Positions 10,312 through 27,985 of a DNA stretch of 32,877 nucleotides are shown here, in pieces (position 1 is the first letter of the stretch; each line of letters starts with the position of its first letter). The position numbers were made by a program, and so were the translations under genes. Under the pieces are notes generated by a model. It did no database searches and had not been told where the DNA came from. It was given only the letters and a program-made list of their open reading frames with translations. Source of the DNA: an uncultured Caldilineaceae bacterium (GTDB lineage: Bacteria > Chloroflexota > Anaerolineae > Caldilineales > Caldilineaceae); NCBI GenBank assembly GCA_964370975.1, contig CAYJNV010000006.1:1-32877 (forward strand), given 5' to 3'.

Positions 10312-11474
10312 GGCAGCGCGCCTTCGGTTGCAGAGGCACTTTCCAGCGCAGGAATCGCCTCGCCGGTCGTGTAGCGCTGCACCTCGCTGTAAAAGGGCTT
10401 GGGCTCGAAGTCGGTGCGCACAAACGTGTAATAATCCTGATAGGATTTCTGGTCCCACGGAAAGCGGAAGACCCACACGCACAGGGCATCGAGCCAGGGC
10501 CATTCGACGTTGGCTATCTCATACGCACGCAGCGTGTAGTCAATGCGCTGCGCCGGGTGCACAGCACGCGTCCAGCGCGGGTGGTCATTCCAGCCGCCTT
10601 CGGTAATCATTGCGTGCTTCGCCCCATCGCCATTCTCAACCATGATGGCGCGCATGAGTTCGGCGCGGCGGAAGTTGATGGCAGCCGGATCGGCAGGTTC
10701 GTCGGGGTCGCCGTGCCAGCCATAGGCGTGGATCGCAAGGCTGTCAAAGTAAGGCGCGGCGCCGGCGGCATACATTGCACGCAAGAAGTCCAGGTCATTC
10801 ATTGCCTCATCGCTGCCCGGGGGCGCATTGGTAGGGGCGAGCGCGCCCGCAAGCACCTGCACATTGGGATTGGCCGCCTTGATCATCGGGTAGACCACAC
10901 GCAGCATCTCCGTATACTTGACTGGATCGGGCGGTTGAAAGCCCCATTCGAGCGCCAGGTTGGGCTCATTCCAAATGATGACGTGGTCGATACTGTCGGC
11001 GTAGCGGGCTACAAACTCGGCGGCGTAGCGGCCGAAATCGGCAAAGTGCTCCTCATCCAGATAGAGGGGCGTCGTCTCCCTGGGACGGGCCCAGGCGGGG
11101 ACGAAGCCCAGCCGCGCGATGATTTGCACACCCTGGCGCTGCGCATGCGCCACCACCAGATCGCTGTGCGCCCACTCCTGCCGGCCCTGCCGCTCCTCCA
11201 CATAGGCCCAGGGGAAGTACTCCACTGCCCAGGGTGCACCCATCTCGCGTACCATCTCCCAGGTGCGCTTGATCTTCCATGCCTCCACCTCGTCGGTCAG
11301 GCGCGTGTGAATGCCTACCTTGGAATTGGTCGTCTCCACACTGCGCTGCGGGCCCAGGGCGACGGCGTTCCAATTGCGCAAGAGTGTGAACGCAACCACG
11401 AACAGGCCGAGCAGCACAAGTGCGGCGGCCGCGAGCAGCAGCGAGCGAGTACGGGCAGTGAGGTTGGGGCGCAT
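10308..11474 (-). CDS. membrane-anchored clan GH-A (TIM-barrel) glycoside hydrolase
   Basis: The N-terminus is basic and followed by a TM helix (RTRSLLLAAAALVLLGLFVVAF). The acid/base motif IIWNEPNL and the nucleophile motif AMITEGGWN are typical of GH5/GH39-like clan A enzymes. I could not assign the exact GH family. Confidence 0.7.
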   Translation of the reverse strand: MRPNLTARTRSLLLAAAALVLLGLFVVAFTLLRNWNAVALGPQRSVETTNSKVGIHTRLTDEVEAWKIKRTWEMVREMGAPWAVEYFPWAYVEERQGRQEWAHSDLVVAHAQRQGVQIIARLGFVPAWARPRETTPLYLDEEHFADFGRYAAEFVARYADSIDHVIIWNEPNLALEWGFQPPDPVKYTEMLRVVYPMIKAANPNVQVLAGALAPTNAPPGSDEAMNDLDFLRAMYAAGAAPYFDSLAIHAYGWHGDPDEPADPAAINFRRAELMRAIMVENGDGAKHAMITEGGWNDHPRWTRAVHPAQRIDYTLRAYEIANVEWPWLDALCVWVFRFPWDQKSYQDYYTFVRTDFEPKPFYSEVQRYTTGEAIPALESASATEGALP

Positions 11475-14234: not shown

Positions 14235-15254
14235 ATGTGTGCCATTTACGAGCGAGCTGTGAAAGTCATCATCCAGATTCCGTGCTATAACGAGGCGCTC
14301 ACGCTACCGCAGACGGTGGCGGCGTTGCCGCGCACCTTGCCGGGTGTGGAAAGCCTCGAGTATCTGGTGATTGATGACGGCAGCAGCGACGCCACGGCAG
14401 AGGTGGCGCTGGCCCTGGGCGTTGACCACGTGCTGCGGCTGGCCTCCAACGGCGGTCTGGCACGCGCCTTTGTGGCTGGTCTGGATGCCTGCATCGCGCG
14501 CGGCGCGGATATCATCGTCAATACCGACGCCGACAACCAATACTGCGCCGATGACATCGCGCGACTTGTCGCGCCCATTCTGGCCGGGCGCGCCGAACTG
14601 GTGGTGGGCGACCGCGGTGTGGCCAACCATCGCGATTTCAACGCCACCAAGCGCTGGCTGCAGCGGGCGGGCAGTTGGGTCGTCTCACAGGCAGCCAACA
14701 GCCTCATTCCCGACGCCACCAGCGGCTTCCGCGCACTCACGCGCGACGCCGCGCTGCGCACCGTGGTTCTCTCCGAATACTCGTACACGCTGGAAACCTT
14801 GATCCATGCCGGTGCGCGTCACGCCGCCGTTGAGCATGTAGCCGTGCGCACCAACCCCCCCACGCGCCCCTCGCGTCTTATGAGCAGCCTGCCCCACTAT
14901 CTGGGAAATTCGGGAGCAACAATCGTGCGCGCCTACACCCTTTACCGACCGCTGCGCGTCTTCTTCACCCTGGGAACTGTCTTTATCGCCGTCGGCCTGG
15001 CGATAGGCGTTCGTTTCCTCTACTTCTACGCCGTCGGCACGGGCGGTGGCCATGTCCAGTCGCTAATTCTCGCGGCGGTGCTGCTCATCGTCGGCTTCCA
15101 GGTGCTGCTGATTGGCCTTGTGGCCGATCTGATCGGCGCCAACCGCAAGATGATCGAGGAACTCCTCTACCGCCAGCGGCGTGAGGATGCAGCAGTTGGG
15201 GCAGCACAGGTGGAGAAATCGACCAGGCCACAGAGGGAGATCAGCGCGCCATGA
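14235..15254 (+). CDS. GT2 polyprenyl-phosphate glycosyltransferase (GtrB/ArnC/DPM1-like)
   Basis: [31 protein letters not shown] and NTDADNQY form a GT-A catalytic domain. Two C-terminal TM helices follow ([18 protein letters not shown] and [25 protein letters not shown]), the architecture of lipid-phosphate sugar synthases. The start is uncertain: ATG 14235 or GTG 14259, while the maximal ORF starts at 14199. Confidence 0.8.
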
Positions 15255-16009
15255 AAGAAGGGCTGAAAATCCGCGCCTACAACACCGCCACCCGAATCTT
15301 CGGCAACCGCATGGTCGTCAACGAGCACTTTGTCCCCGCACGCGGTCTTGAGATTGGACCCTACCTGGCTCGGGGCGACAGAACCGCCGTCCATCACCTG
15401 CTGCGCTATCAATGGGCAGTGGCCACCCTGGCTGATCACCCGGCCCCGCAGCGCATTCTCGACATGGCCTGCGGTTCGGGATACGGGACTGCATCCATCG
15501 CTGCCCACTTCGCCGGCAGCAGCGTTCTGGGTGCCGATTACGATCCAACGGGCATTGGCTACGCGCAAGAACATTACCGCCTCATGAATCTTGCGTTTGT
15601 CCAGGCTGATGCCCACAAGTGGGAAGAGTCTCTAGGGAACGAGCGCTTCGATTGCGTTGTGAGTTTTGACACACTGGAACACAGCGCCCATCGCGACATC
15701 TTTATGGAAAACCTGGTGCGCCACCTCAACCCGGGCGGTTGGTTGCTTTTCTCAACCCCATGCGGTAGCGACACCAATGACTTGCGCCCGCGCTGGCTTC
15801 ACCACGCCATTGAATACTCAACCGCCAGCCTCTACGACTTCCTGCGCCGCTATTTTCGCGTTGTCCAGCGTCCTGAGGAGAAAGACTTCCCGCATAGGGA
15901 GGTCTTTGACCAACTCGTAGGCAGCAAAGTGGACTACCTCCTGCGTCTGAATCCAGTTCTCTGCCGCGAGCCAATTCACATCGCAAATCCCTACCGGAGC
16001 GACCGATAA
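15251..16009 (+). CDS. class I SAM-dependent methyltransferase
   Basis: SAM motif I is [12 protein letters not shown], followed by [11 protein letters not shown] and [12 protein letters not shown]. The start overlaps the upstream stop (ATGA at 15251-15254). Confidence 0.8.
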
Positions 16010-16031
16010 TGACGGTGAATGGAGCCCGAAG

Positions 16032-17147
16032 GTGAGCAGACCGTCGTTGCGTCTCACTTTCATCCTGTCGTCGTTGTGGCTCTCGGGGGGCATGCGCGAC
16101 ATAGTGGAGTATGCCAACCGCTTTGCCGCGCGTGGCCACAAGGTCACTCTTGTCTACCCAGGAAATACCTGGGATGGGCATATGGCGGAGGAAATCTCGC
16201 CCGATGTCGCACTGGTCGCGAGCCAGGTCCTGCGCAATAGGACCATGGGGCGTATCGGCCACCTGCGCCTGAGCAGGTCACTCGCCGCAGCCGCACCCTT
16301 GTCTGACTTCATCATCTCCACCCAAACGCCAACGACCGTAGCCACTTGGGAGGCTACAGCATGGCAGCACAAGGGTCGCCCCATCTGGTTCTTCCAGGAC
16401 TATTTGACGATGTTTCACGGGCGCCCGCTTGAGCAGTGGCTGATGCAAAACGCGCTACGCTGGCATGAGAAAGCGTATACCATATCGGCCTGGGCCGGAG
16501 AAGAATTGCCGCAGGCGCATCGCGAAAAAATAGAGGTCGCAGGAATCGGCCTGAGCCATGCGGAACTCTTCACCCCCTGCTATTTTGAAGAGCGCGAAAG
16601 CCGGCCCGTGCGGACACTTCTCTATTTGGGTGACGAGCGCCCACGCAAGGGGCTGCGCGAGTTCCTGGATGCTGCGAAAATTGTGCACATGGAGTATCCC
16701 GACGTGCGGTTGCAGATCGTCTCCAAGGAAGAGTGTACAGTCGAGACGTCGCTGCCCTTCGAGTACGTACACCGGCCGTCGGTTGAGGCGCTCGCCAACA
16801 TGTACCGCACTTGCGCAGTCTATGTCGCCTCATCATGGTCCGAATCGCTGGGAATTCCGCCTCTGGAAGCCATGGCATGCGCTGCGCCCGTTGTCTTGGC
16901 CGATGCCGGCGGCACGCGCGATTACGCCGTAAACAACGTCAACTGCCTGGAGGTGCCTGCGCGTGACGCGCCTGCACTCGCGCAGGCTATCCTCGCCGTG
17001 CTGCGCGATCCCGCGCTGGCTGCGCGCCTCTCCCACGCCGGGCCCCCCACGGCCGCACACTATGATTGGGAGTCTCTGACTAGCCGCTGGGAGGAGCGGC
17101 TGTTACAGCTCCACGCCACTGCACCGCGACAAACCAAAGTCAGGTAA
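16032..17147 (+). CDS. GT4-family (GT-B fold, group 1) glycosyltransferase
   Basis: GGMRDIVEYANRFAARGHKVTLV is a typical GT4 N-terminus, and SWSESLGIPPLEAMACAAPVV is the EX7E region. GTG start with GGAG 7 nt upstream. Confidence 0.85.
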   Translation: MSRPSLRLTFILSSLWLSGGMRDIVEYANRFAARGHKVTLVYPGNTWDGHMAEEISPDVALVASQVLRNRTMGRIGHLRLSRSLAAAAPLSDFIISTQTPTTVATWEATAWQHKGRPIWFFQDYLTMFHGRPLEQWLMQNALRWHEKAYTISAWAGEELPQAHREKIEVAGIGLSHAELFTPCYFEERESRPVRTLLYLGDERPRKGLREFLDAAKIVHMEYPDVRLQIVSKEECTVETSLPFEYVHRPSVEALANMYRTCAVYVASSWSESLGIPPLEAMACAAPVVLADAGGTRDYAVNNVNCLEVPARDAPALAQAILAVLRDPALAARLSHAGPPTAAHYDWESLTSRWEERLLQLHATAPRQTKVR

Positions 17148-17153
17148 CCCAAG

Positions 17154-17942
17154 ATGAATTCACACCCTGAGACATTCATGCCTCTCGAGGCGTTGGGCGC
17201 CGACTATCCGCCTTATCGTCCCACTTACGAAACGACGCCCGCACAAGGCTACCTTAGCGCTTATCAGCAGCGGCTTGCCGAAGCGCCGACACAGCATGGG
17301 CTGCTCATGCAGCTGGGGGACAAAGGCGTGCTTCGCCGCGCACTCTCGCAAAGGCTGCACGACTCGCTGGTCGATGCTCGGAACGCACTGCGCTTTCGCG
17401 GCACTGTGCCGGGCTGGCTCATGCACGCCGATGCGCTCAAACTCTACGAAATGGCCTACCACTCCACGGGTCCAATTCTTGAACTGGGCTGCTACCACGG
17501 CCTCAGCACATCGATCATGGCGCACGCCGTGCGTGATGCGCAGCGCCCCACACGGATATATAGCGTGGACCTCGACCCCGCATGCATTGCCGCCACCCTG
17601 CGCACACTGCGCCGCCGCAACCTGGCGCTGGGCTGCGCCCTGGTTTGTGACGAGGCGGCTAACGCAACGCGCCGCTTCGCCGACGAAGGCTTGCGCTTTG
17701 CCTTTGCCTTTGTTGACCACGCACACACCTATGCTCCCGTGCGCGCTGCCTGCGAGGCGCTTCCCACGGCGCTCGCACCGGGCGCCTTCTGCCTCTTCCA
17801 CGACTTCAACAGCCCTTTCAACCGCGACCCGCAAAACCACAACTATCAGGTCTATCAGGCGGTCACCGAAGGGCTTGACGCCGAGCGCTTCACCTTCTGC
17901 GGCATCTATGGTTGCACGGCTCTTTACCGTTTTGACGCCTGA
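17154..17942 (+). CDS. class I SAM-dependent methyltransferase (Methyltransf_24/O-methyltransferase-like)
   Basis: ILELGCYHGLST is motif I. IYSVDLD and FAFVDHAHTY follow, as in the small sugar/O-methyltransferase group. Starts 6 nt after the GT4 stop. Confidence 0.65.
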   Translation: MNSHPETFMPLEALGADYPPYRPTYETTPAQGYLSAYQQRLAEAPTQHGLLMQLGDKGVLRRALSQRLHDSLVDARNALRFRGTVPGWLMHADALKLYEMAYHSTGPILELGCYHGLSTSIMAHAVRDAQRPTRIYSVDLDPACIAATLRTLRRRNLALGCALVCDEAANATRRFADEGLRFAFAFVDHAHTYAPVRAACEALPTALAPGAFCLFHDFNSPFNRDPQNHNYQVYQAVTEGLDAERFTFCGIYGCTALYRFDA

Positions 17943-17954
17943 GCACTGCCCAAA

Positions 17955-19157
17955 CTAGAGCGCAAGTTGCCTCACAATTTCCGCCAGCCGCTTCCTAATC
18001 ACCTCTTCGGACGCTGAGGCCAGGAAGGCCGCGCGACCTCCTGCCGCAATTTCGGCGCGTACTGATGGGTTGTCATGCAGCGCCAAAATCGCCAGCGCCA
18101 GCGCCGGCGGATCCTGGGGCGGTACAAGCCACGCCGAGCGACCATGCGCAAGCAGCTCGCGATTGGCAGGGCTGTCTGCGGCAACCACTGCGCGTTCGCA
18201 CGCGAGCATTTGGTAGATTTTGCCCGGGATAGTGCGCTGCGCTTTTGCACTGGGGCCAAAGTGACCCCCAAGCGCAATGTGCGCGCCACGCAGTTTGTCG
18301 GCAATCATAGCCGCGTGCATTGGCGCCAAGAAACGGGTATGGCGCAGGCGCAGATTAAGTGCGAGCGCCTCCATGGCCGGCCGCATAGGACCGTCGCCCA
18401 CAAGGTGAAAGTGAATGTCCAGCCCTTCAAGGTAGGCTGCGGCATGCAGCACCGTCTCAACGCCATGGAGCGGAAGGTAGGTGCAGTAGTAGAAAACGGT
18501 AGTACGCGAGGCACTGTCATCTTGTATGCCCGGCAGCCGCGCGGCGCCGGCTTGCGCGAATGGATAGAATATCTCCTCGTTGCAGCCTACCGGCAGTGCA
18601 TGCAATTTGCGCGCGTCCACACCCAGGACATCGATGAAATACTCCACGTGCGCCTGTGTATCCAGTAGAATGGCATCGGCCATGGCGCTGGGAATCCTGT
18701 CCAGCGCAAGCGCCAGGCGGCCACGCAGCGAATTGGGTGCAAACGCTCCGCGGTCAAACGCGAGGGTATCGTAATTGGAAATGAAGGCATCAAAGAGGAT
18801 AGGCGAATGCGTCAGCGGACGCAGGTGCGGCAGAATGAGGGACCCGTAGAAGCCCACAAAGACGAGGTCATAGCGGCGCGTGACTAGGCGCCTGACGGCC
18901 TGCGCCGTCACGGTGGCGCTCGAACGTAGTAGTGAGGCAGGCGGTGCGGCGGGTGCCACGACGTCAACGCTACCCATTCGTCGCAACGCGCGCAACAGGA
19001 CATCATTGCGCGCGTAGCTCATTTCGCGGCCGGCCACAAATAGAATCTGCATTCGTTCTACCAAGTAGGGGTTTGCGATGCTGGCCCGCTCATTCGGCCG
19101 GTCAATTGGCACTGTGGCCTGCACCACAATGCCAATTGACGGAGTGTTTTCCGCCAT
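17955..19157 (-). CDS. GT-B fold glycosyltransferase (group-1-like, atypical EX7E region)
   Basis: Two Rossmann-like halves are present. The C-terminal half reads HFHLVGDGPMR..GGHFGPSAKAQRTIPGKIYQMLACERAVVAAD, which places it in a group 1 glycosyltransferase context. It is the only minus-strand gene in the island. The alternative start at ATG 19052 (MQILFVAG...) looks more like a typical GT N-terminus. Confidence 0.7.
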   Translation of the reverse strand: MAENTPSIGIVVQATVPIDRPNERASIANPYLVERMQILFVAGREMSYARNDVLLRALRRMGSVDVVAPAAPPASLLRSSATVTAQAVRRLVTRRYDLVFVGFYGSLILPHLRPLTHSPILFDAFISNYDTLAFDRGAFAPNSLRGRLALALDRIPSAMADAILLDTQAHVEYFIDVLGVDARKLHALPVGCNEEIFYPFAQAGAARLPGIQDDSASRTTVFYYCTYLPLHGVETVLHAAAYLEGLDIHFHLVGDGPMRPAMEALALNLRLRHTRFLAPMHAAMIADKLRGAHIALGGHFGPSAKAQRTIPGKIYQMLACERAVVAADSPANRELLAHGRSAWLVPPQDPPALALAILALHDNPSVRAEIAAGGRAAFLASASEEVIRKRLAEIVRQLAL

Positions 19158-19187
19158 TATAGGGCCGCTACGCTATACTTGCAGATT

Positions 19188-20219
19188 ATGCAGAGCAGAC
19201 AGCGTAGCCGCAATGAAGAATACGAAGCGAACGGTGACGCCGAAAAAGCAGACCCTAAGGCGTCGGCGTTGGCCGGCGCAACTGCGTATCAGCCCGCGTA
19301 TCCGCTCCGCGTGGTGGTGCTGAACTGGAATCTTGCTGCCGACACACTGGCATGTGTGCAATCGCTGCTCATCGATGGTTTCCAGCCCGCTGATATCCTG
19401 GTCATGGACAATGGATCAACAGCAGGCCGAGGAACACTTGCAGCAGGACTGCCGCCAGGCGTGGGACAGCTCTATTTGCCGCAGAACGTGGGCTTTGCCG
19501 CAGGTAGCAATGTCGGCATTGCTGCCGCACTTGACACGGGCGCGGCGTGGTTGCTGCTACTGAACAACGATACTCTTGTGGAGCGGGGCGCACGCCGCGC
19601 GCTGCTCGACGCGGCAGCGACAGACACATTTGCGCTTCTCAGCCCGCTCATCCTTTACAGTGATCCGCCTCCGCGTGTCTGGTCGCTGGGCGATCGGCGC
19701 ATTATGGGTACGCTGCTTACGCGCAGCTTATGGCGCAACCAGCCGCCGCCCACGCAACTGCCGACGCTGCTGGAAGTAGACTTCCTCACCGCATGTGCGC
19801 TCATGGTGCGCGCCGACGTCTTCGCGCGTGTAGGGCTGCTGGATGAAGGCTACTTCATGTACGCTGAAGATGCCGACTTCTGCTTGCGCGCGTCCAGGGC
19901 TGGTTTTCACCTCGGCTGCGCAACGGAAGCGCGCATCGCGCACAAAGTGTCGCGCAGCACGGGGAGTACGCACCCGGCCGCGCGTCGCTGGCGCATTTTC
20001 TACCAGGCGCGCTTCTACCGCCTGCATGCGGGGCCAATGCAGCGGCTTCTACTGCTCATGCCCTACACATTGGCGCGTTCGCTCCTAATGGCCGTACGCG
20101 ACCTCCTCGCAGGCCGTTCGCAGATGGCCGCCGCCACGTTGCAGGGATGGCTTAGCGGGTGGGTGCAGACCCATAGTCCCGGCCACAATGCAACTGGCAG
20201 GTCGAATAGCGACCAATGA
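19188..20219 (+). CDS. GT2 glycosyltransferase (WbbL/rhamnosyltransferase-like subgroup)
   Basis: Motifs: VVVLNWNLAADTLACVQSL, VMDNGSTAG, NVGFAAGSNVGI, LLLNNDT, YAEDADFCLRA. The maximal ORF begins at TTG 19179; I chose the first ATG at 19188. Confidence 0.8.
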   Translation: MQSRQRSRNEEYEANGDAEKADPKASALAGATAYQPAYPLRVVVLNWNLAADTLACVQSLLIDGFQPADILVMDNGSTAGRGTLAAGLPPGVGQLYLPQNVGFAAGSNVGIAAALDTGAAWLLLLNNDTLVERGARRALLDAAATDTFALLSPLILYSDPPPRVWSLGDRRIMGTLLTRSLWRNQPPPTQLPTLLEVDFLTACALMVRADVFARVGLLDEGYFMYAEDADFCLRASRAGFHLGCATEARIAHKVSRSTGSTHPAARRWRIFYQARFYRLHAGPMQRLLLLMPYTLARSLLMAVRDLLAGRSQMAAATLQGWLSGWVQTHSPGHNATGRSNSDQ

Positions 20220-21886
20220 ACGATGCTCTCGGAATTCCCGGCACATTGGAGTCGTCGGTTGTTTTATCGCAGCGCGCGCAACGCGTCGTGCGTAATTCGT
20301 TCGCGATCGTTTGCGCTGCGGCAATCGCACTTCTATTCATTCCCCAGGCCTTGGTTGTTGCGGCAGCAGTGCGACTTGCGCCGGATCATCTGCTTGAAGA
20401 GAAGACAGTCGCGCTGCTTGGGGCCCTGCAATGGGTGATGCCCATTGTGGGGGTGCTTGGCATCATCTGGATCTTGCTCGCACCACGTGCACGTAGTTCG
20501 ATGCGCAACTTAGCGATCGTGACTGGCTCCAGTCGGTGGAGCCTTCCAGTGATTTTGGTGCTTGCCACAGTTGTGCGCGTTGCCTGGCTGTATTGGTTCC
20601 CTACTCGACCGTACGCCGATTCGGTTGGCTATATTGCCGCCGCTACGCAACTCGTGAATGGCCATGGCTATGTTTGGGATGCGGAGAGTATGCAACCCCT
20701 GGTCGGATGGCCTGTGGGCTACCCGGCAATTCTGGCCGCCTTGTTCCTGATTACGGGGGTGACTGCTGAGACTGCGCTTGCGCTCAACCTGGTGGTTTCG
20801 GTGCTGACGGTGGCGCAGACGGCTTGGCTTGGATCTCTCCTGTTTGGGAGACGCGTGGGCCTGATGTCCGCGCTTCTGCTGGCGCTGTTTCCGGGCTTTG
20901 TAGTCTATACGAGTCTTGTCAGCACGGAACTTGTGTTCCTGTGGTTGACAAGTCTGTGCTACCTGTTGGCGGCCCGCCCACCGCAGCGAACCACCGCCTT
21001 TGCACCCACGGTCAATGCTGGCATTGCAGCAGGGATTATGGCGGGAGCGGGCGCGCTCGTCCGCTCGACGGGGCTGCTTTTGTTGCCCTTTTGGGTCTTT
21101 GTGAGATGGAGCAGTCAACGCAATGTAAAGCAAGCGGCATTGTGGGCAGTCGCGCTCTTTGCCACTGCTGCGCTCATCGTTTTGCCCTGGACAGCGCGCA
21201 ATTACCTGACGTTCGGCAAGATCATTCCTGTTTCCACCAATGGTGGGATGAACTTCTGGATAGGCAACAATCCGAATTCTCACGGGGCGTATATGTTTCC
21301 GCACGACCCCGCGTTGAATCCACTCTACCCGCTTGCCGAACAACGTGATGAGATTGGCATGGAGTCTGAAGGCTATCGGCTCGGAAGTGCATGGATCCGT
21401 GCGACCTTGCAGACTGACCCCAAGCGCATATTTGTGCTGTACGGCGCCAAAATCGTCTACTTCGTCTCCGGGTTCGATTTTGGCCTGCAATGGAACACGC
21501 TGTCGGCGATGGCGGAAAATCAAAGCGGAACCGGCCTGCGGGCACACGTGCTTGTCAACGGGGCCTATTTGGCGATGCTGGCGGGCGTATTCTTCGGCGT
21601 CTTGGCACTAATGCTCGCGCGCGGACATGGCACCCTGTTGCAGTGGGGGCCGTTGCTCTTCTACCTTTACTGGCTTGCAGTACATATGCCCTTCTTTGGA
21701 CAAGATCGCTTCATGCTCCCGGCGCTGCCCGGGCTGATCATCTTTTGCGCACTGGGCGCGTTGACACTGTTTGACGCCGTGATTGCGACTCCATCTCACG
21801 CGTCGCGAGGTGAAGTCGCAGCATCCTTATCGGAACACCGCATTGACGCGGGTAAAGATGGAATCAATGCCACATGGAAACTGTAG
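20216..21886 (+). CDS. GT-C family membrane glycosyltransferase (PMT_2/ArnT-like)
   Basis: 556-aa polytopic protein. The first-loop motif is WFPTRPYADSVGYIAAATQLVNGHGY (Asp plus Tyr pattern of ArnT/PMT_2-like enzymes). The start overlaps the upstream stop (ATGA at 20216-20219). Confidence 0.8.
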   Translation: MNDALGIPGTLESSVVLSQRAQRVVRNSFAIVCAAAIALLFIPQALVVAAAVRLAPDHLLEEKTVALLGALQWVMPIVGVLGIIWILLAPRARSSMRNLAIVTGSSRWSLPVILVLATVVRVAWLYWFPTRPYADSVGYIAAATQLVNGHGYVWDAESMQPLVGWPVGYPAILAALFLITGVTAETALALNLVVSVLTVAQTAWLGSLLFGRRVGLMSALLLALFPGFVVYTSLVSTELVFLWLTSLCYLLAARPPQRTTAFAPTVNAGIAAGIMAGAGALVRSTGLLLLPFWVFVRWSSQRNVKQAALWAVALFATAALIVLPWTARNYLTFGKIIPVSTNGGMNFWIGNNPNSHGAYMFPHDPALNPLYPLAEQRDEIGMESEGYRLGSAWIRATLQTDPKRIFVLYGAKIVYFVSGFDFGLQWNTLSAMAENQSGTGLRAHVLVNGAYLAMLAGVFFGVLALMLARGHGTLLQWGPLLFYLYWLAVHMPFFGQDRFMLPALPGLIIFCALGALTLFDAVIATPSHASRGEVAASLSEHRIDAGKDGINATWKL

Positions 21887-22854
21887 TGTGCAACCTCTGC
21901 GGCGCCGCCGACGCGACCGAATTTGCCGTCGTCCCCGATCTGCTCCTTGATCGTCCCGACGTCCACGCCCGTCTCGTACGCTGCAATGCCTGCGGGCTTG
22001 TCTACCAGAACCCGCGCCCCACGCCAGACGAAATCGGGGTGCACTATCCTTCAACCTACGAGTCCTACGCCAACCATCGCGTCCGCGCCAAAGGCCAGTT
22101 ACTGCGACGCGCCTACGATTATGGAATGCAGAAGCGTTGCCGCTTTGTCACGCGTGCCTTACCGCAAGGAGGACGTCTGCTTGACCTGGGATGCGCTGCC
22201 GGCGCCTTCCTCGTTGCCATGCGCGAGCAAGCCAACTGGGAGGTGGAGGGCGTTGAGTTAAGTAAGGAGACGGCGCAAAGCGCACGTGAGCACAATGGGC
22301 TCAAGGTCTTCGCAGGCACGCTTGAACAGGCCAACTTCCCGGACAACCACTTTGACGCTGTGACGCTGTGGGATGTACTGGAACACCTGCATGACCCTGT
22401 CGGGACGCTCGCGGAGATCAATCGCGTTCTGCGCCCAGGTGGAGTTGCCGTTATCCGCGTGCCAAATTTCGATAGTTGGGATGCATCGCTCTTTGGCTTG
22501 TACTGGGCCGGACTGGATGCGCCGCGCCACTTGTACATCTACACGCGCGCGACGCTGGCAAACTCTCTGCGCGCCGGTGGTCTAGAGTTACTCGGTCAAT
22601 CAACGGCGATAGGTTCCTACCCCATCTTTGCCCTCAACGTGCGCTTCTGGTTGAACGCCCGCGGTGCAACCCCAGGCGTCAAAGGCGCAATATCGAAGGC
22701 CCTGTACAACCCGATCAGCCGGCTGTTGAGCGTGCCGGTATTCTTCGTCCCATCTGTGGCGGGGGCAGGGCCACTGCTTGTCGCGACGGCACGCAAACCG
22801 GTGGGTCGGCCCGCACCGAGCCCACAGAAGAACAAGGACATGGCACATCCATGA
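21874..22854 (+). CDS. class I SAM-dependent methyltransferase with N-terminal Cys4 zinc ribbon
   Basis: CNLCGAAD...VRCNACGLVY forms the CxxC..CxxC ribbon. LLDLGCAAGAFL is motif I, followed by DAVTLWDVLEHL and LRPGGVAVIRVPN. Overlaps the upstream gene by 13 nt. Confidence 0.8.
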   Translation: METVVCNLCGAADATEFAVVPDLLLDRPDVHARLVRCNACGLVYQNPRPTPDEIGVHYPSTYESYANHRVRAKGQLLRRAYDYGMQKRCRFVTRALPQGGRLLDLGCAAGAFLVAMREQANWEVEGVELSKETAQSAREHNGLKVFAGTLEQANFPDNHFDAVTLWDVLEHLHDPVGTLAEINRVLRPGGVAVIRVPNFDSWDASLFGLYWAGLDAPRHLYIYTRATLANSLRAGGLELLGQSTAIGSYPIFALNVRFWLNARGATPGVKGAISKALYNPISRLLSVPVFFVPSVAGAGPLLVATARKPVGRPAPSPQKNKDMAHP

Positions 22855-23654
22855 TTGACATTCAGCACGCAACCATACGTCAGGGCCAGTCCATTCAAGA
22901 CGCGTACGATGAGCTCTTCCAGGAACGCTCGCTCATCATGCGCGACTCGTTCTACTTGTGGATTCTGGAACTCGCGCGCCCGGCCCCTGGCGATTTGCTG
23001 GTTGACGTTGCCACCGGCAACGGGCGGCTGGTGGAACTGGCCACCGCACAGGGGATCCGTGCGGTGGGCGCCGATCTCTCCTACCAAGGTATTGCCACTG
23101 TGGCCGCGTCAGCACCCGAAGCGGCTTCCTGGCTCGTCTCTGACGGCCAATGCATGGCGCTGCCCGATGGTTCGGTGGATCGCGTCATCAGCCTCGGGAG
23201 TCTTGAACACTACGACGATCCGCTTCAGGGCGCGTCCGAGCTTGCGCGTATTCTCAAGCCGAACGGTCGCGCGGTCGTATTGCTGCCGAATGCCTACGGC
23301 ATTTTTGGCAACGTCAAGTACGTTTGGCAGCATGGCGAGGTATTTGACGATGGGCAACCCCATCAGCGCTATGCGACGCGCGGCACATGGGAGCGAATGC
23401 TGCAGCGGGCCGGGCTCATGCCCGAACGACTGGTCGCATGGACTGAAGTCAACCGCCCGCGCACGCGACGTGACTTTGACGTCATGCTGCGCAGTCCACA
23501 AAAGATCGTGCGCGCCGCACTTGCTGCTGCCTTTCCGGTCAATCTCGCCAACCAACTGGTCTTCCTGTGCCGGCGGTCGTCAAACGCCGAGAAGGCGTCG
23601 GCAGCGGCCCACTACACCACGCTTCCCACTCACTTTGAGCGTACCACGTCATGA
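22851..23654 (+). CDS. class I SAM-dependent methyltransferase (Methyltransf_11-like)
   Basis: I trimmed the maximal ORF (from 22476) to ATG 22851, which overlaps the upstream stop (ATGA). LLVDVATGNGRL is motif I, followed by DRVISLGSLEH and LKPNGRAVVLLPN. Confidence 0.8.
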   Translation: MIDIQHATIRQGQSIQDAYDELFQERSLIMRDSFYLWILELARPAPGDLLVDVATGNGRLVELATAQGIRAVGADLSYQGIATVAASAPEAASWLVSDGQCMALPDGSVDRVISLGSLEHYDDPLQGASELARILKPNGRAVVLLPNAYGIFGNVKYVWQHGEVFDDGQPHQRYATRGTWERMLQRAGLMPERLVAWTEVNRPRTRRDFDVMLRSPQKIVRAALAAAFPVNLANQLVFLCRRSSNAEKASAAAHYTTLPTHFERTTS

Positions 23655-24640
23655 GTCGGCCCGATGCGCCCTCCCCGGCTCCCGCGCCACCGGGTCCGCC
23701 CGGTAGGCTCGGCGACGAAAGCGAAACTCCAACGCCACGGCGCGGCAGCCGCTACCTTGCAGCCGGCATTACAGCCCTTCTCATGGCGCTGATTCTCGGC
23801 TGGCTGCTCTTCCGTGAGCGCGACGCCCTTGCCACAATTAACGTGCAGCACGCCTGGCCGCGACTGGTTGCAGGCCAGGTGCTGATGCTCATCGGCCTGA
23901 TCGGTGCAGCGTGGGTATGGGGGAGCATCATGCGTGCCGTCGGTTCGCGGCTTGCCATGGTGGACCATTTTCACATTTATGCGAGCACCTATCTCTCGCG
24001 CTTTCTGCCCGGCACAATCTGGTATGTAGTGGGACGCAGCGCCTTCTACCGCATAGAGGGTGAGACAGCGCGTTCGGTGACCGTGGGCAGCGCGATTGAG
24101 TTGCTGTTGTCCACAGTGGCGGGAGCGCTGTTGGCGTTTGCGCTTGGGATTCTGGTGGCAACTCAGACGCCTGCGGCCACGCTGCCTGTGCTGGCTTTAG
24201 CAGTGGCCGCAGGCATACTGGCATTCAACCCTCGGGTGCTGGCGCTGCTTGTCAGGCGTCTGCGCTTACCAGCCGTGCCGCCGCTGCCCATGGGCTCCCT
24301 CGCGAGGTGGCTGCTTGTTGACATTTTGGCGTGGCTCATCGGGGCCGTCATCTTTTGGCTTATCGCGAATGAGGTGGGCAGCGTTCCCCTTGCGGCAATT
24401 GGCTACACCACCTTTGCATGGACGTTGATGGGTAGCCTTGTTATCTTCGTATTCTTCTTGCCCAGTAACTTCGGCTTGACCGAAGTGGGGCTGACCCTGC
24501 TGCTTAGCACCATCATGCCCTCTTCCCTCGCGGTTGTCGTTGCGGTCCTCACGCGCATCCTGCAAACCCTATTCGCCGTTGTTGCTTGCGGGCTGATTGT
24601 GGCTGTGACAACACATCGGCGGCGCGCGGCGCGCCCGTAG
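23651..24640 (+). CDS. UPF0104 / lysyl-phosphatidylglycerol-synthase-TM-region-like polytopic membrane protein (putative lipid-linked-sugar flippase)
   Basis: A Pro-rich cytoplasmic N-terminus precedes about 8 hydrophobic helices. IYASTYLSRFLPGTIWYVVGRSAFY resembles the conserved (F)xNxxLPGxxGxxxR loop of the family. The start overlaps the upstream stop (ATGA at 23651-23654). Confidence 0.65.
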   Translation: MSRPDAPSPAPAPPGPPGRLGDESETPTPRRGSRYLAAGITALLMALILGWLLFRERDALATINVQHAWPRLVAGQVLMLIGLIGAAWVWGSIMRAVGSRLAMVDHFHIYASTYLSRFLPGTIWYVVGRSAFYRIEGETARSVTVGSAIELLLSTVAGALLAFALGILVATQTPAATLPVLALAVAAGILAFNPRVLALLVRRLRLPAVPPLPMGSLARWLLVDILAWLIGAVIFWLIANEVGSVPLAAIGYTTFAWTLMGSLVIFVFFLPSNFGLTEVGLTLLLSTIMPSSLAVVVAVLTRILQTLFAVVACGLIVAVTTHRRRAARP

Positions 24641-24964
24641 AACCTGGTGATACTGGGGCAAACGCCATCACCCAAACGGAGTATCATTCTCCAGAGAAAA
24701 GCCGCGCAGCGCGTTTGCGACGGCATTTGCGCCTGGATGCAGAAGAGTGAGCAGAATACCCCCATCGTTGTATTGAAGTGCTGCGCGAAATGGCGCATGA
24801 TGGTCGCAGCGAATGGCAGGTCGATGTTCGACGACCTCGGCACTTCCTGCACGCCGCGCCGGAATTAAGGCAATTCGACCAGTTTCTGTCGCGGCGCTTT
24901 CAAGTCACGTCAGATCAAAGTAGACAGTCACCGCTTTCAATTTGCTTTCCAGGGGAGGCACACA

Positions 24965-26293
24965 ATGTCAAAGGGATTACGCGTTCTGATTGTATTAGCG
25001 ATGCTGGCAGGCATCTTCGTCGTAGGTGGTGCGCAGGTTGCGTTGGCGCAGAACACCCAGTTCGCCGCCTATACATCGGGTATCCAGGTGGCAAACCTTG
25101 ACACAGTTCAGGCCGCAGTCGTGCTCATCGGCTACAATGCCGATGGAACGCAGAGCGGTTCGCCACTGAATGATACAATTCCGATCAACAGTTCCAAGAC
25201 GTACTTCCCGATCAGCAACGTAGCGAACGGCTTCAGTGGCTCGTTTGTGATTTCGTCCGACAAGAAGGTTGCGGCAATCAGCAACATTCTCTCGTCCGAC
25301 TTCAAAGCGGGTGCTTCGTACGTGGGCCGCTCGGGCGGCGCTACCAAGGTGCTGTTGCCGTTGCTGAACAAGAACAACTCGGGTTTCACCACGTGGTACA
25401 GCGTACAAAACGCCGGTGCGGGTGATGCCAGTGTGTCGGTCGCCTACAGTGACGGCACAAACGTCGGTCCATTCGTTGTCAAGGCTGGCGCTGCCAGGGT
25501 CTTCTACCAGGCAGCCGAGACGCACAGCGTTCCGGTCTTTGCAGGCACTGTCACGAGCAACCAGCCGGTTGTGGCGGCGGTAATACAGGAGAACAACCAG
25601 ATTATGTTCGCCTACACCGGGTTCACCGGTGGCACGACAAATCCAGTGTTCCCTCTGATCAATTCCAACAACTCAGGCTATGTCACGGGTCTGCAGATCC
25701 AAAATGGTGGTGATCAGGCAACAGAAGTGACTGTACAGTACACACCTGGCATTGCGGGCACAGCATGCACCGAGACACAGACCATTGCCAAGGGCGGGTC
25801 CAACACCTTTGCGCTGCGTGCATTCTTGCAGACAGTGGCCGGAGAGAACTGCGCCAATGGTGCGCGTTTCGTCGGCTCGGCACGCGTCTCGACAAACAGC
25901 ACCAACCAGCCGCTTGTGGCCGTGGGCAACCAGTTGGGCGTCGGCAACGGCGAAGCGTATGGTGCGTTTGACGCCGCTGAAGCAGGCCCCGTCGTCGTGA
26001 TGCCCTTGATCATGGACCGCAATGGCGCTTTCTTCACGGGCTTTAGCGTTCAGAATGTGGGCGTCGCGACTGCCGTCGAGTGCGTCTTCAGCAACAACGC
26101 TTACAAGGTTAACGCCAACCTGCAGCCCGGCCAGGCCGTATCGGACATTCAGTTCAACAAGCTCGGCGCCGGCTACGTCGGTGCGGCTACATGCAGCTCC
26201 AATCCGCCGAGCACACTCGTTGCGATTGTCAACGAGCTGAGCGTGACGCCGGGTGTGGACAACTTCCTCGTCTACGAAGGAATCAAGAAGTAG
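24965..26293 (+). CDS. secreted protein built from four ~100-aa tandem repeats (unknown family; candidate surface/sheath protein)
   Basis: The signal peptide is MSKGLRVLIVLAMLAGIFVVGGAQVALA|QN, and a strong SD GGGGAGG lies 6-7 nt upstream. Four internal repeats share PL(I/L)xxxNxG(F/Y)xTxxx(V/I)QNxG..V.V.Y, then (F/Y)xG(S/T)..V(S/T)SN..P(L/V)VAxxN, then Y.G. A hairpin terminator follows the gene. Confidence 0.8.
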   Translation: MSKGLRVLIVLAMLAGIFVVGGAQVALAQNTQFAAYTSGIQVANLDTVQAAVVLIGYNADGTQSGSPLNDTIPINSSKTYFPISNVANGFSGSFVISSDKKVAAISNILSSDFKAGASYVGRSGGATKVLLPLLNKNNSGFTTWYSVQNAGAGDASVSVAYSDGTNVGPFVVKAGAARVFYQAAETHSVPVFAGTVTSNQPVVAAVIQENNQIMFAYTGFTGGTTNPVFPLINSNNSGYVTGLQIQNGGDQATEVTVQYTPGIAGTACTETQTIAKGGSNTFALRAFLQTVAGENCANGARFVGSARVSTNSTNQPLVAVGNQLGVGNGEAYGAFDAAEAGPVVVMPLIMDRNGAFFTGFSVQNVGVATAVECVFSNNAYKVNANLQPGQAVSDIQFNKLGAGYVGAATCSSNPPSTLVAIVNELSVTPGVDNFLVYEGIKK

Positions 26294-26553: not shown

Positions 26554-27183
26554 ATGCTGAAGAGACACGCTACTTCGTCTATTGTGATACTTATGTTCTT
26601 GACGCTTGCACTGACAGCTTGCGGGAAGGACAAGGCGCCGACCGCTTCGTCTGCAGCGGACCAACCGTCCGCCACTTCGATCCCGGCGCCCGTGGCGGGG
26701 GGGGCTGCGGAGTCACCGTTGCTTTCGGCGGGCGACTCGCCCGTTGCTACACCGGTGTCCGAGTCACCCATCGTCACACCTGAGCGTGAGGTTTCGGGCA
26801 TGACCGGCGAGACCTCTGGCGAGACGGGTGCGATAACGGGGAAGATTCTCATCTCCCGCGACGGCGCCGACGTGCCTGTCGCAGGCATGATCATCGGTCT
26901 GGCCGAAGTCATTCGCGACGAAAACGGCAACCCGCAAGCCACTGGATATGCCCCGGACACGGCCAAGAAGGGCACGACTCATGACGACGGCGGCTTTGCA
27001 GTCAACCTGGTGCCACCAGGTATGTATTCACTGATCCTCGATGCCGTAATTACTTCGTACCAACTTGAGAATCCCGTCACTGGGGAAACAATCCTCGTTG
27101 AGGTTGAGTCCGGGGAGGTGGTGGACGTGGGCGTGCTGCGCTACAGTACGCTGCCCGTGCCCGGCTTTAGCGATTCAAACTAG
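26554..27183 (+). CDS. lipoprotein with S/T/P/A-rich linker and C-terminal beta-sandwich (carboxypeptidase-regulatory-like) domain
   Basis: The signal peptide carries the lipobox LTLALTA|C. The low-complexity linker reads [46 protein letters not shown]. Then [38 protein letters not shown] resembles a CarboxypepD_reg-like fold. GAGG SD 5 nt upstream. Confidence 0.75.
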
Positions 27184-27271: not shown

Positions 27272-27985
27272 ATGACCACCCAACCCCGCATCACCATCCT
27301 GGTCGTCGACGACGAACCGCGCATGGTGCGCTTCGTCAAAATGAACCTCGACCTCGAGGGCTATTTCACGCTCGAGGCCAACAATGGCATGGTGGCGCTC
27401 GAGAAGGTGCGCGACTTCAACCCCGACCTGGTGCTGCTTGACGTGGAAATGCCCGGTATGGATGGCTTCGAGACGCTCAAGCGGCTGCGCCAGATCAGCG
27501 ACACCTCGGTCATCATGCTCACCGTGCGCTCGGATGAAGACGACAAGATCAAGGGGCTGGACCTGGGCGCGGACGACTACATCACCAAGCCCTTCAGCCC
27601 GCGCGAGCTTTCAAGTCGAGTGCGCGCCGTGCTGCGTCGCGCCGAGAACAGCGGCCGTCTCGAGAAGCAGACAATCACAATTGACGATCGCCTGCAGGTG
27701 GACCTGCAGCGGCGTGACGTGATCGTGGATGGCGAGCGCATCAACCTGCGCCCGACCGAGTATCGCCTGCTCTACCAACTCATTCAGAACGCGGGCTGGG
27801 TCATCCCCCACGAGACGCTGCTCACGAAAGTGTGGGGGCCAGAGTACCTCAACGACAATCACCTGCTGCGCCTCTACGTCACCTACTTGCGCAAGAAGAT
27901 TGAGCCGCACCCGGAATCTCCGCAGTACATCTTCACCGAGCGGGGGCTTGGCTACCGCTTTGTGGACTACAAGCGCAGCAACTAG
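27272..27985 (+). CDS. OmpR/PhoB-family response regulator (receiver plus winged-helix DNA-binding domain)
   Basis: [24 protein letters not shown] (phospho-acceptor Asp), LTVRSD and [10 protein letters not shown] form the receiver. [18 protein letters not shown] is the winged helix. I trimmed the maximal ORF (from 27065) to ATG 27272. Confidence 0.9.

Follow-up and report, generated by a model that had tools for sequence, protein, structure and literature searches.

Ten genes in a metagenome contig of a Caldilineaceae bacterium (Chloroflexota) form a real cluster that is conserved in that family, and their products most likely build a short methylated glycan on a membrane lipid carrier, translocate it and attach it to a component of the cell surface. 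The genes, here g1 to g10, lie in what we call the window, the whole stretch of 32,877 nucleotides that was analysed. A fuller reading, in which this lipid-carrier pathway leads to a surface glycoconjugate and the products of the next two genes, g11 and g12, are its probable acceptors in Caldilineaceae, is favoured tentatively, with confidence somewhat short of even; every step in it is based on homology, biochemical necessity or gene neighbourhood. The cluster is a bacterial variant of known glycosylation schemes and not a new kind of system.

Gene order and its conservation

Domain annotation with Pfam and NCBIfam found, in all ten reading frames, the domains originally predicted for them. 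The tight packing with ATGA overlaps that had been described is there at four junctions (g1/g2, g6/g7, g8/g9 and g9/g10), and g7 and g8 overlap by 13 nt, but g5 sits on the minus strand and so the ten genes form at least three transcription units. Nor is 'island' apt in its horizontal-transfer sense, because the GC content is about that of the flanks, with no distinct composition, and the region is syntenic chromosome.

The block g6-g8-g9-g10-g11-g12 recurs in eight Caldilineaceae loci with differing downstream flanks, and upstream of it there is a g1-type synthase gene with one or two GT4 genes wherever the locus extends far enough. Five g11 homologues were chosen independently of the enzymes (loci L087-L091), and in all five g6-g8-g9-g10 lies directly 5′ of g11 and a gene for a g12-like lipoprotein directly 3′, with far flanks that differ. 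In two loci of other Anaerolineae, L086 and L092, the enzyme core occurs without g11 and g12; g1, g3, g5, g8, g9 and g10 are co-conserved in both, and neither flank is like that of the window. Thus g11 and g12 cannot be the sole acceptors. That the enzyme genes are kept as a unit bears out what had been proposed for checking. The set of tailoring enzymes changes from locus to locus, with a carbamoyltransferase, a sulfotransferase or extra methyltransferases in some, which is what one would expect of a decorated surface glycan.

Could the adjacency of g11 and g12 be inherited synteny without functional coupling, the ten enzymes serving more than one unrelated product? The window, L002, L004, L087 and L090 do share housekeeping flanks, e.g., tyrA and rpsB-tsf-pyrH, g5 is divergent, and g11 appears to have a promoter of its own. 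However, the g6-to-g12 order survives different downstream genes in L088, L089 and L091, the enzyme core of L086 and L092 is set amid wholly different surroundings, and stop/start overlaps join g6-g7 and g8-g9-g10; we regard mere synteny as very improbable.

Proposed assembly and methylation of a lipid-linked glycan

The pathway would begin with g1 (14235..15254, plus strand), a GT2 of polyprenyl-phosphate sugar synthase type (Pfam Glycos_transf_2, E 8.6e-21) with two hydrophobic C-terminal TM helices, at 249-267 and 278-296. Its best NCBIfam model is AglJ (1e-30; 107 bits, with no other family model above 59), followed by PpgS, PgfS and ArnC, all scoring below their cutoffs, and it aligns nearly end to end with the solved structures of ArnC and GtrB (sll0501) and over the catalytic domain with DPMS. 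Orthologues of 61-88% identity are present in eight related loci (L002, L004, L085-L088, L090, L092), and the edge of L089 holds a short C-terminal fragment. By homology to ArnC, GtrB, DPMS and AglJ, g1 would load a sugar onto polyprenyl phosphate at the inner membrane face. Is there any other enzyme for this role? Ten loci of about 20 kb each, from at least three lineages, were screened for priming and export genes, and the predicted absence of the classical ones was confirmed: neither in the window nor in any of nine related loci was a gene found for Wzx, Wzy, Wzz, an ABC exporter, WecA/WbaP or a nucleotide-sugar pathway. As the ten have no initiating phosphoglycosyl transferase, g1 is the only enzyme of the locus that homology identifies as charging a carrier lipid; genes for priming or export may lie in other parts of the genome, outside the window.

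Extension to a short lipid-linked oligosaccharide would fall to three soluble enzymes. The first, g3 (16032..17147, plus strand), is a cytoplasmic GT4 (GT-B) glycosyltransferase (Glycos_transf_1 E 5e-21; Glyco_trans_1_4 likewise E about 1e-21) in which a TM segment was sought and none found; matches of its type, with 31-74% identity, occur in all related loci that reach the region, the weakest (L086, L089, L091, L092) spanning the C-terminal domain only. A second cytoplasmic GT4, g5 (17955..19157, minus strand; Glyco_trans_1_4 E 2.2e-16), is kept in all related loci; orthologues, whose alignment sets in at residue 29-36, place its probable start at 19052, and M36 begins MQILFVAG. The third, g6 (19179..20219, plus strand, start codon uncertain), is by Pfam a WbbL/GlfT1-like GT2 whose best NCBIfam model, rhamnosyltransferase subfamily TIGR01556, is matched below cutoff (E 4.6e-15). 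It opens the invariant Caldilineaceae block and is present in all eight of those loci and in L086, and absent from L092. The simplest acceptor for extension would be the g1 product itself, cf. AglJ of Haloferax, which primes a dolichol-phosphate glycan; there, the monophosphate-linked glycan is extended and modified by soluble glycosyltransferases and a methyltransferase, is then flipped, and ends up on a surface protein.

O-methylation of the sugars by g8 and g9, joined in this genome by g2 and g4, would have to be cytoplasmic, because SAM is available only there. Two of these genes, all on the plus strand, are accessory and variable: g2 (15251..16009), for a class I SAM methyltransferase (Methyltransf_23/11/25), is in L004, L085, L087 and L088 and absent from L002, L089 and L090, and g4 (17154..17942; Methyltransf_24, PF13578, E 1.8e-16), weakly matched by models of rhamnosyl O-methyltransferases, recurs among related loci in L087 alone. 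The core SAM methyltransferases are g8 (21874..22854; Methyltransf_23 E 3.8e-27), which has an N-terminal Cys4 motif, a C-terminal hydrophobic segment at 285-303 and orthologues (45-62% identity) in every locus covering its position, and g9 (22851..23654; Methyltransf_11 E 3.9e-16), whose orthologues (39-65% identity) adjoin the UPF0104 gene upstream in all loci with a clear g9; L086 has at that position a methyltransferase that is not a clear g9 orthologue.

The UPF0104 gene, g10 (23651..24640, plus strand), encodes an MprF-flippase-domain membrane protein of about 8 TM segments (PF03706, LPG_synthase_TM, 36.7 bits with a cutoff of 33.4; TIGR00374 'flippase-like'), a candidate translocase for the lipid-linked glycan. 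It is present in 10/10 loci, and its subfamily, 364 representative clusters at E<=1e-30, is nearly all stand-alone. Methyltransferase genes lie directly 5′ of it in every locus, methyltransferase-methyltransferase-UPF0104 being the tightest module, and in P0272, from Anaerolineae, a g10-type domain is fused to a g8-type methyltransferase (36% identity). This coupling and the fusion point to UPF0104 flipping a lipid-linked glycan that is already methylated rather than a bare polyprenyl-phosphate monosaccharide; family and fixed position after the methyltransferases suggest that g10 moves the finished methylated glycan to the outer face.

The same arrangement would be unexpected if only an unmodified monosaccharide donor were flipped, and it weighs against classical three-component decoration alongside a separate polymer, a rather unlikely alternative. 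There, g10 would flip the single sugar charged by g1 and g7 would add it to a secondary cell-wall polysaccharide, its backbone made by g3, g5 and g6 on a pyrophosphate-linked primer and methylated by g8 and g9, with initiating enzyme and exporter encoded elsewhere and with g11 binding or organising the polymer, not glycosylated. The g1 and g7 families are indeed those of Gtr, Arn and CsbB/YfhO, among which the flippase family differs, being GtrA, SMR or MATE (PMC11127046); the models nearest to g6, WbbL and GlfT1, act on pyrophosphate-linked wall-polymer primers, the g11 domains are of an ASRT/TM1070-type beta-sandwich without an S/T-rich region, and L086 and L092 do without g11 and g12. Against these stand the ten loci devoid of priming and export genes and the lack of conservation of g7.

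Or is the product a glycolipid or lipoglycan of the PIM/LM or GpgSDF/HexSDF type? GT4 enzymes would then glycosylate a membrane glycerolipid on the cytoplasmic side, methyltransferases modify it, UPF0104 flip the glycolipid, and GT-C enzymes extend it outside using the polyprenyl-phosphate sugar from g1. GT4 enzymes with a Ppm1-like GT2 and several GT-C proteins are the logic of mycobacterial PIM/LM/LAM, the extra polytopic proteins (u1-u3, A4 family) would fit multi-step extracytoplasmic extension, and g3 weakly matches the GlcNAc-PG synthase (GpgS) model, E 9.4e-9, but with 34.6 bits is far under the cutoff of 480. PplT/UPF0104-GT-B fusions are reported from Chloroflexi (bioRxiv 10.1101/2022.03.11.483950). 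The UPF0104 substrates studied or predicted are glycerolipids, Lys-PG for MprF and, as a prediction, GlcN-PG for GpgF, which like HexF is paired with a GT4 (PMC12713373); that they are not polyprenyl-linked glycans counts against the favoured pathway. However, no Gpg-, Hex- or Pim-type deacetylase or acyltransferase is seen here, and the strict adjacency of g11 and g12 in eight loci would be left unexplained, and a glycolipid product is in our view distinctly unlikely. The mycobacterial pathway runs from cytoplasmic GT4 enzymes via an unidentified flippase to GT-C extension, for which a Ppm1-type GT2 supplies the polyprenyl-phosphate mannose. The structural matches of g7 include PimE, but the locus has no PI-specific enzymes or acyltransferase, the phylum is different, and that pathway has neither methylation nor fixed protein partners. 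GpgSDF (P. aeruginosa) and HexSDF (C. difficile) have in common with the locus a GT4 and a stand-alone UPF0104 predicted glycolipid flippase (PMC12713373), but consist of three genes, one of them for a deacetylase, and lack a polyprenyl-phosphate synthase, a GT-C and a methyltransferase.

The GT-C gene and the known schemes

In the favoured lipid-carrier pathway a GT-C protein, g7 here and other polytopic proteins in relatives, would attach the glycan to an extracytoplasmic acceptor. The gene g7 (20216..21886, plus strand) encodes a GT-C fold membrane glycosyltransferase of PMT_2 type (30.7 bits, cutoff 26.1) with about 11 hydrophobic segments and, as conserved motifs, a YADS loop motif and NGGxNFWIGNN. 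Its AlphaFold model (pLDDT 83) has the GT-C fold, and the Foldseek matches at probability 1.0 are led by AglB (1.8e-6), then ALG3, STT3, ArnT and Pmt4, and include PglB and PimE. In the known en-bloc transferases with this fold (STT3, AglB, PglB) a WWDxG motif sits in a domain at the C terminus; g7 has neither the domain nor the motif, and characterised PMT_2/ArnT-type enzymes transfer single sugars. These features, the poor conservation of g7 and, for g11, the separate promoter and the lone, partly conserved sequon all count against the pathway.

Actually, g7 is the least conserved of the GT2/UPF0104/GT-C trio. Orthologues are in L002, L004, L085 and L086, with none in L087-L092: the visible part of L087 and L091 has no GT-C gene at its place, in L088 a different PMT_2 protein of 667 aa replaces it, and L089, L090 and L092 have instead an unrelated polytopic family of 632-957 aa, which in L086 stands alongside the g7 orthologue. 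Some g7 homologues, of about 40% identity, are in unrelated gene contexts. The co-occurrence of the trio with the repeat protein g11, proposed as a check, is thus seen for g10 in the eight Caldilineaceae loci but not throughout for the variable GT-C. Three more GT-C genes had been claimed at the start of the window (u1-u3, 2..5891, plus strand), and these polytopic proteins with C-terminal soluble domains probably are GT-C; u3 barely passes the PMT cutoff (23.3 bits, cutoff 22.7), but u2 is below that for PMT_2 (E 6.5e-4) and far below that of mannosyltransferase model NF052499 (2.8e-9), and the truncated u1, weakly similar to u2 (E 5e-10), has no Pfam match.

A scheme of these three families is not new, since a conserved archaeal neighbourhood of an AglD-like GT2 (arCOG00897), UPF0104 (arCOG00899) and a PMT/STT3-related GT-C (arCOG00563) was predicted in 2015, with UPF0104 as glycosylation flippase, a role that is itself only a prediction (PMC5898192). 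As in that AglD/AglJ module, the three families share one neighbourhood here, the best model for g1 is AglJ and the best structural match of g7 is AglB. Unlike it, the host is bacterial, UPF0104 is a separate protein and not a C-terminal domain of the GT2, g7 is without the STT3-type domain, and all scores are below equivalog cutoffs. The parallel drawn with the Gtr, Arn, CsbB and Ppm1 schemes holds for the shared GT2 and GT-C families but not for the flippase family or the variable GT-C. Like GtrA/GtrB/Gtr*, ArnC/ArnEF/ArnT, CsbB/GtcA/YfhO and the pentofuranose (GT136) systems (PMC11127046), the locus combines a GT-C and a candidate flippase of small to medium size with a synthase GT2 that ends in TM helices; in contrast to them, the flippase candidate is of the MprF-flippase (UPF0104) family and not GtrA, SMR or MATE, the core includes three cytoplasmic glycosyltransferases and two to four methyltransferases, and it is the GT-C that varies. 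Actinobacterial Ppm1/Pmt, streptococcal GtrB/PgtC2 and Pgf share the GT2 synthase and GT-C logic, and their acceptors are S/T(/P)-rich disordered regions, lipoprotein or membrane-associated, cf. the g12 linker (PMC12041528). However, they add single sugars, have no linked GT4 or methyltransferases, and their targets are encoded away from the enzymes; g7, moreover, matches PMT_2 and not the PMT/PMT_4TMC architecture of Pmt.

The adjoining secreted protein and lipoprotein

The most likely Caldilineaceae acceptors would be the S/T/P-rich linker of g12 and/or g11. The prediction of a secreted repeat protein and an S/T/P-rich lipoprotein just downstream proved correct; that a surface protein or wall polymer is decorated gains from their linkage to the enzymes in five out of five independently chosen loci, but L086 and L092 show that they are not obligatory partners. 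Secreted g11 (24965..26293, plus strand), a candidate glycan acceptor or binder, has a signal peptide, four tandem beta-sandwich domains and two conserved Cys pairs (18 homologues, 56% mean column identity). Its model has pLDDT 84 and, taken singly, its domains match the ASRT/TM1070 fold with probability 1.0; no S/T-rich region was found, and the one N-x-S/T sequon is partly conserved. Homologues number over 670, mostly named as Caldilineaceae. In 8/8 Caldilineaceae loci g11 is directly 3′ of g10, and in the spacer (24756..24801, plus strand) an ATAC-N9-GTAT inverted repeat overlaps a −35-like TTGAAG, followed after 17 nt by CATGAT as −10. This promoter-like element is conserved in an alignment of the g10-g11 spacer from seven loci and was not listed by a consensus promoter scan; it would give g11 its own conserved promoter.

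The lipoprotein g12 (26554..27183, plus strand), directly after g11 in 8/8 Caldilineaceae loci, is a candidate O-glycosylation target. Its lipobox Cys23 is invariant among homologues, and an S/T/P/A-rich linker of 60-94 aa, with 3-5 [ST]-P-[LIVM] motifs, mostly SPL, in 5/6 homologues, leads to a C-terminal beta-sandwich-like domain (weak CarboxypepD_reg match, E 0.012). The linker resembles S/T-rich lipoprotein regions known to be O-glycosylated (PMC12041528). Possibly associated is an OmpR-type response regulator (27389..27985, plus strand; Response_reg and Trans_reg_C), right after g12 in the window, L002, L087, L090 and L091, after g12 and two extra genes in L004, and not adjacent in L088 and L089; genes for three more polytopic proteins come after g12 in L088.

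Gene content and conservation of the locus

Pfam and NCBIfam scans of the 10.4-kb stretch (14235-24640) bore out the ten genes and the domains that had been claimed for them. g1 (14235-15254) encodes a GT2 enzyme, g3 and g5 two GT4 enzymes, g6 a second GT2 whose nearest models are WbbL, GlfT1 and MftF, g7 a PMT_2-type membrane protein, g10 a PF03706/TIGR00374 'flippase-like' membrane protein, and g2, g4, g8 and g9 four class I SAM methyltransferases. The claimed ATGA overlaps are there at four junctions and, besides, g7 and g8 share 13 nt. What has to be amended is the picture of one packed row: g5 is on the minus strand, its start being probably 19052 rather than 19157, and therefore at least three transcription units are involved. 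Horizontal acquisition, as implied by 'island', was rejected, the GC content being the same as that of the flanks and the region being syntenic with housekeeping neighbours. Rfam and tRNA scans were without matches to RNA genes.

Are genes for classical priming and export linked to this set? The original observation that none is to be seen withstood scrutiny. Signatures of Wzx, Wzy, Wzz, an ABC exporter, WecA/WbaP and nucleotide-sugar pathways are absent from the window, and Pfam matches to an initiating PGT/PNPT, to Wzx and Wzy or to Wzm/Wzt, the families checked for across neighbourhoods, were found neither there nor in nine related loci. A rival explanation places priming and export of a wall polysaccharide with distal genes, and leaves to g1, g10 and g7 the provision of a side-chain sugar. 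Systems of the Gtr/Arn/CsbB-YfhO type move a single sugar from a polyprenyl-phosphate monosaccharide onto a pre-formed acceptor; in the present locus the core cytoplasmic glycosyltransferases and methyltransferases argue for the involvement of more than one sugar.

Conservation was examined with two independent samplings, one starting from g7 and the other from the downstream secreted-protein gene g11 regardless of enzymes. The syntenic relatives L002 and L004/L085 have a nearly complete gene set (L002 is without g2 and g4, and L004 without g4). The flanks of L086 are quite different, yet it has orthologues of g1 (65% identity), g7 (40%), g5, g3, g6, g8 and g10. The g11 sampling gave five homologues of 57–71% identity on long contigs (L087–L091), and in all five g6-g8-g9-g10 are directly upstream of g11 and a gene for a lipoprotein like g12 directly downstream, with g5 and g3 further upstream, as is g1 where the locus reaches (that of L091 does not). 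Of the synthase, UPF0104 protein and GT-C, whose co-occurrence with g11 had been put as a question, g10 is found with g11 in each of the five loci picked by g11, and g7 is missing from L087–L092. Inherited synteny with no functional coupling is the rival explanation for such adjacency. Far downstream the loci differ: L087 and L090 have rpsB-tsf, L088 has polytopic proteins without assigned role and an AP endonuclease, L089 has sucCD and a gene for a GerE-Kelch protein, and L091 has sugar ABC-transporter genes. The uppS gene of the window (31809-32591) was excluded from the system, as it is part of the conserved rpsB-tsf-pyrH-frr-uppS array and is missing in L088, L089 and L091.

A tenth locus, L092, from an Anaerolineae MAG, was found by exhaustive profile search with g10, and contains g1, a gene for a 632-aa polytopic protein, g5, g3, g8, g9 and g10, without g6, g7, g11 or g12. 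The comparison shows that the widest core consists of g1, two GT4 enzymes, two methyltransferases, the UPF0104 protein and one polytopic protein, and that the Caldilineaceae-specific unit is this core together with g6, g11 and g12. Some loci have insertions: a carbamoyltransferase in L086 (17619-19256), where there are also extra methyltransferases, a sulfotransferase on the JGI contig of P0012, and in L091 (2123-5970) a P450 together with a DUF362 protein and a phosphodiesterase. These lineage-specific tailoring genes suggest that the glycan would be chemically diversified.

The variable GT-C component

With 13 orthologues as input, AlphaFold gave a g7 model (pLDDT 83) that matched GT-C enzymes with a Foldseek probability of 1.0, AglB being the top match (E 1.8e-6) followed in order by ALG3, STT3, ArnT, Pmt4, PglB and PimE. 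Despite the AglB-like fold, g7 is not of the STT3/AglB/PglB (GT66) type, as it has 556 aa and is without the soluble C-terminal domain. The WWD motif (of WWDxG) is absent among its conserved columns, and it scores 22 bits against TIGR04154, the cutoff of which is 450. It was also compared with the protein O-mannosyltransferase Pmt (GT39), the marks of which are a PMT domain with an acidic motif in loop 1 and a C-terminal PMT_4TMC module. Its Pfam match is to PMT_2 alone (30.7 bits), with none to PMT or PMT_4TMC; behind an early TM helix it has the conserved motif Y-A-D/E-S, and against Pmt4 the model gives an E-value of 2e-3.

Among the ten loci, orthologues of g7 are limited to the window, L002, L004/L085 and L086, those of the related loci having approximately 40–54% identity to it. 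L088 has instead another PMT_2 protein, of 667 aa. A further polytopic family (A4; 632–957 aa, roughly 12 TM) is associated with five loci, its members being at 6985-9408 in L086, 272-2815 in L089, 14282-16219 in L088, 1548-4421 (minus strand) in L090 and 4110-6008 in L092. Profile comparison with the g7 family gives it a weak match (hhalign probability 22%), in which its W-G-D-S-Y is aligned onto the conserved Y-A-D-S-x-W-Y loop of that family. In relatives the A4 genes are often translationally coupled to g1, and at most faint similarity of the family to DUF1616, DUF6798 and GT-C was seen. Sequence searches of the PDB with the g7 profile, g10 and the A4 family gave no useful matches. No polytopic transferase was seen in the visible 10 kb of L087 and L091. 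The GT-C is the variable part of the locus.

The nearest relatives of g7 in the genome collection are from Anaerolineales and Caldilineaceae MAGs, and g7-like genes of about 40% identity also sit in unrelated contexts. An ENA metagenome contig bears the identical sequence, and from these relatives and the names of the g11 homologues it follows that the host belongs to the Caldilineaceae of the Chloroflexota. A wider scan of the collection with g7 yielded 80 loci (L005–L084), in which, beyond the closest relatives, g7-like GT-C genes are without link to the other genes of the set; a g1-like GT2 is within 10 kb in only some 11 of them. The wider GT-C family therefore tells little about the locus. 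Three more GT-C genes had been proposed at 2-5891 of the window, and of these the third (u3) is above a Pfam cutoff, barely, with the other two (u1 and u2) not above one. The three genes are consecutive and overlap; their polytopic products each end in a large soluble domain, show weak or absent PMT/PMT_2 likeness, and may be further extracytoplasmic glycosyltransferases.

Priming, methylation and the UPF0104 protein

Behind the Pfam GT2 catalytic domain of g1 there are two hydrophobic C-terminal TM helices, the arrangement characteristic of polyprenyl-phosphate glycosyltransferases. Over residues 9–302 it aligns with the solved structures of ArnC and GtrB, and for Pyrococcus DPMS the alignment covers the catalytic domain; because of the helices and these alignments g1 is taken to be of the polyprenyl-phosphate sugar synthase type. 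With no other initiating enzyme in the ten loci, and with AglJ as its best model, the sequence evidence suggests that g1 itself primes the chain; a primer may also be encoded at a distance.

The sole flippase candidate in the window is g10, as there is no GtrA, SMR (ArnE/F) or MATE flippase there. By sequence it belongs to the MprF-flippase-domain/UPF0104/COG0392 grouping, residues 41–312 scoring 36.7 bits against PF03706 (cutoff 33.4), and with about eight hydrophobic segments it is multi-pass; the solved MprF structures gave no sequence match to it. The lipid flipping ascribed to GpgF (PMC12713373) and to the C-terminal domain of AglD (PMC5898192) is also a prediction. A rival explanation, that the product is a glycolipid or lipoglycan of the Gpg/Hex or PIM/LM type, agrees with the known or predicted substrates of UPF0104 proteins.

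A word-indexed search with g10 gave 12 matches, and the exhaustive profile search had wider reach. Of the best 150 representatives of the g10 subfamily, nearly all stand alone, with a length of about 310 aa. In the loci compared, g8-g9-g10 are contiguous in each locus with clear g9 orthologues, and in L086 the gene directly before that for UPF0104 is a methyltransferase gene as well. In the 611-aa protein P0272 (L092, 10001-11836) a g10-type UPF0104 domain and a g8-type methyltransferase (36% identity to g8, N-terminal Cys motif included) are fused, though this is a single sequence from one Anaerolineae MAG and may be an assembly error. Since methylation from SAM has to take place in the cytoplasm, what the translocase would move is probably methylated already.

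Candidate acceptors and relation to known systems

Downstream, the product of g11 (24965-26293) has a signal peptide and is built of four beta-sandwich domains in tandem, with conservation of two disulfide pairs (pLDDT of the model 84), and its single domains resemble the ASRT/TM1070 fold. The family has more than 670 matches, is unusually conserved (mean column identity 56%, as against about 40–54% identity to g7 for the g7 orthologues of the related loci), and its named members are from Caldilineaceae or Caldilinea. For g11, g12 and the A4 family, scans against NCBIfam and Pfam produced sub-threshold noise, the exception being some homologues of g11 that weakly match DUF5719. Literature searches on DUF5719, LPG_synthase_TM, Chloroflexi O-methyl wall polysaccharides, the Caldilinea S-layer and the Chloroflexi monoderm envelope turned up no paper on the locus or the g11 family. 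The locus points to a family of highly conserved, so far undescribed, secreted proteins of Caldilineaceae. Caldilineaceae are filamentous and abundant in wastewater and soil, and to our knowledge the cell envelope of these bacteria is poorly characterised; the g11 family may be a major component of it. N-glycosylation of g11 finds no support, as there is just one sequon, partly conserved (12 of 18 sequences). g12 (26554-27183) has an invariant lipobox cysteine, an S/T/P/A-rich linker of 60–94 aa in which [ST]-P-[LIVM] motifs recur, and a small domain that resembles a beta-sandwich.

A candidate regulated promoter of g11, recognised from sequence, is at 24756-24801, where an ATAC-N9-GTAT inverted repeat overlaps a -35-like TTGAAG that is followed after 17 nt by a -10-like CATGAT. 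The element is about 165 nt upstream of g11, whose leader is long and whose Shine-Dalgarno sequence is strong, and the same arrangement is present in the g10-g11 spacers of L002, L087, L088, L090 and L091. A consensus promoter and terminator scan of 13.9–28.2 kb gave sites in numbers not above those of the shuffled controls. After g12 there is an orphan OmpR-type response regulator (27389-27985), without adjacent histidine kinase, that might control g11 or the locus; such a regulator also follows g12 in L002, L087, L090 and L091, and in L004 comes after two extra genes.

The most economical reading, every functional statement of which we infer, is that g1 would charge polyprenyl phosphate with a sugar, the soluble transferases would lengthen the lipid-linked glycan, the methyltransferases would complete it, g10 would flip it and a GT-C would attach it outside. 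In Caldilineaceae the best candidates for acceptors are the neighbours g12 and/or g11. A more specific version, Agl-like protein glycosylation in Caldilineaceae/Anaerolineae in which a methylated oligosaccharide on polyprenyl monophosphate is primed by an AglJ-like GT2, flipped by UPF0104 and transferred en bloc by a non-STT3 GT-C to g11, as a major surface protein, and to its partner g12, is unlikely; if true, it would provide the first UPF0104 flippase of lipid-linked oligosaccharide with a defined substrate.

An archaeal neighbourhood of GT2, UPF0104 and PMT/STT3-like genes has been described, and UPF0104 was proposed there as a glycosylation flippase (PMC5898192). Three-component systems, with flippases from several families, are well established in bacteria (PMC11127046), as is glycosylation of S/T-rich lipoprotein regions by GtrB and a GT-C in streptococci (PMC12041528). 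With the Gtr, Arn and CsbB-YfhO systems the present locus shares the g1 synthase, but g10 is not of the GtrA, SMR or MATE type and a linked g7 is present in only part of the loci. It also differs from what is known in its bacterial, Chloroflexota, setting, in a core to which soluble transferases and methyltransferases belong, in the constant pairing of its UPF0104 gene with methyltransferases, and in keeping two particular secreted proteins adjacent. Which proteins flip polyprenyl-linked sugars and oligosaccharides is, as far as we know, a gap of long standing, and we know of no test of UPF0104 in that role since it was proposed in 2015. With one synthase, three soluble transferases, methyltransferases, one UPF0104 protein and adjoining candidate acceptors, the locus is a compact conserved bacterial setting for testing the proposal.

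Two other features of the window are of separate interest. On the minus strand at 10308-11474 is the gene for a 388-aa protein with one N-terminal TM helix and without Pfam match, whose 'IIWNEPN' motif recalls clan GH-A glycoside hydrolases and which is syntenic, at approximately 70% identity, in L002, L004 and L085. A LonC-type protease (LonB-like AAA and Lon_C; 5901-8456, minus strand) adjoins a metallophosphoesterase and an SBP_bac_3 protein, an arrangement that L004 and L085 share in synteny.
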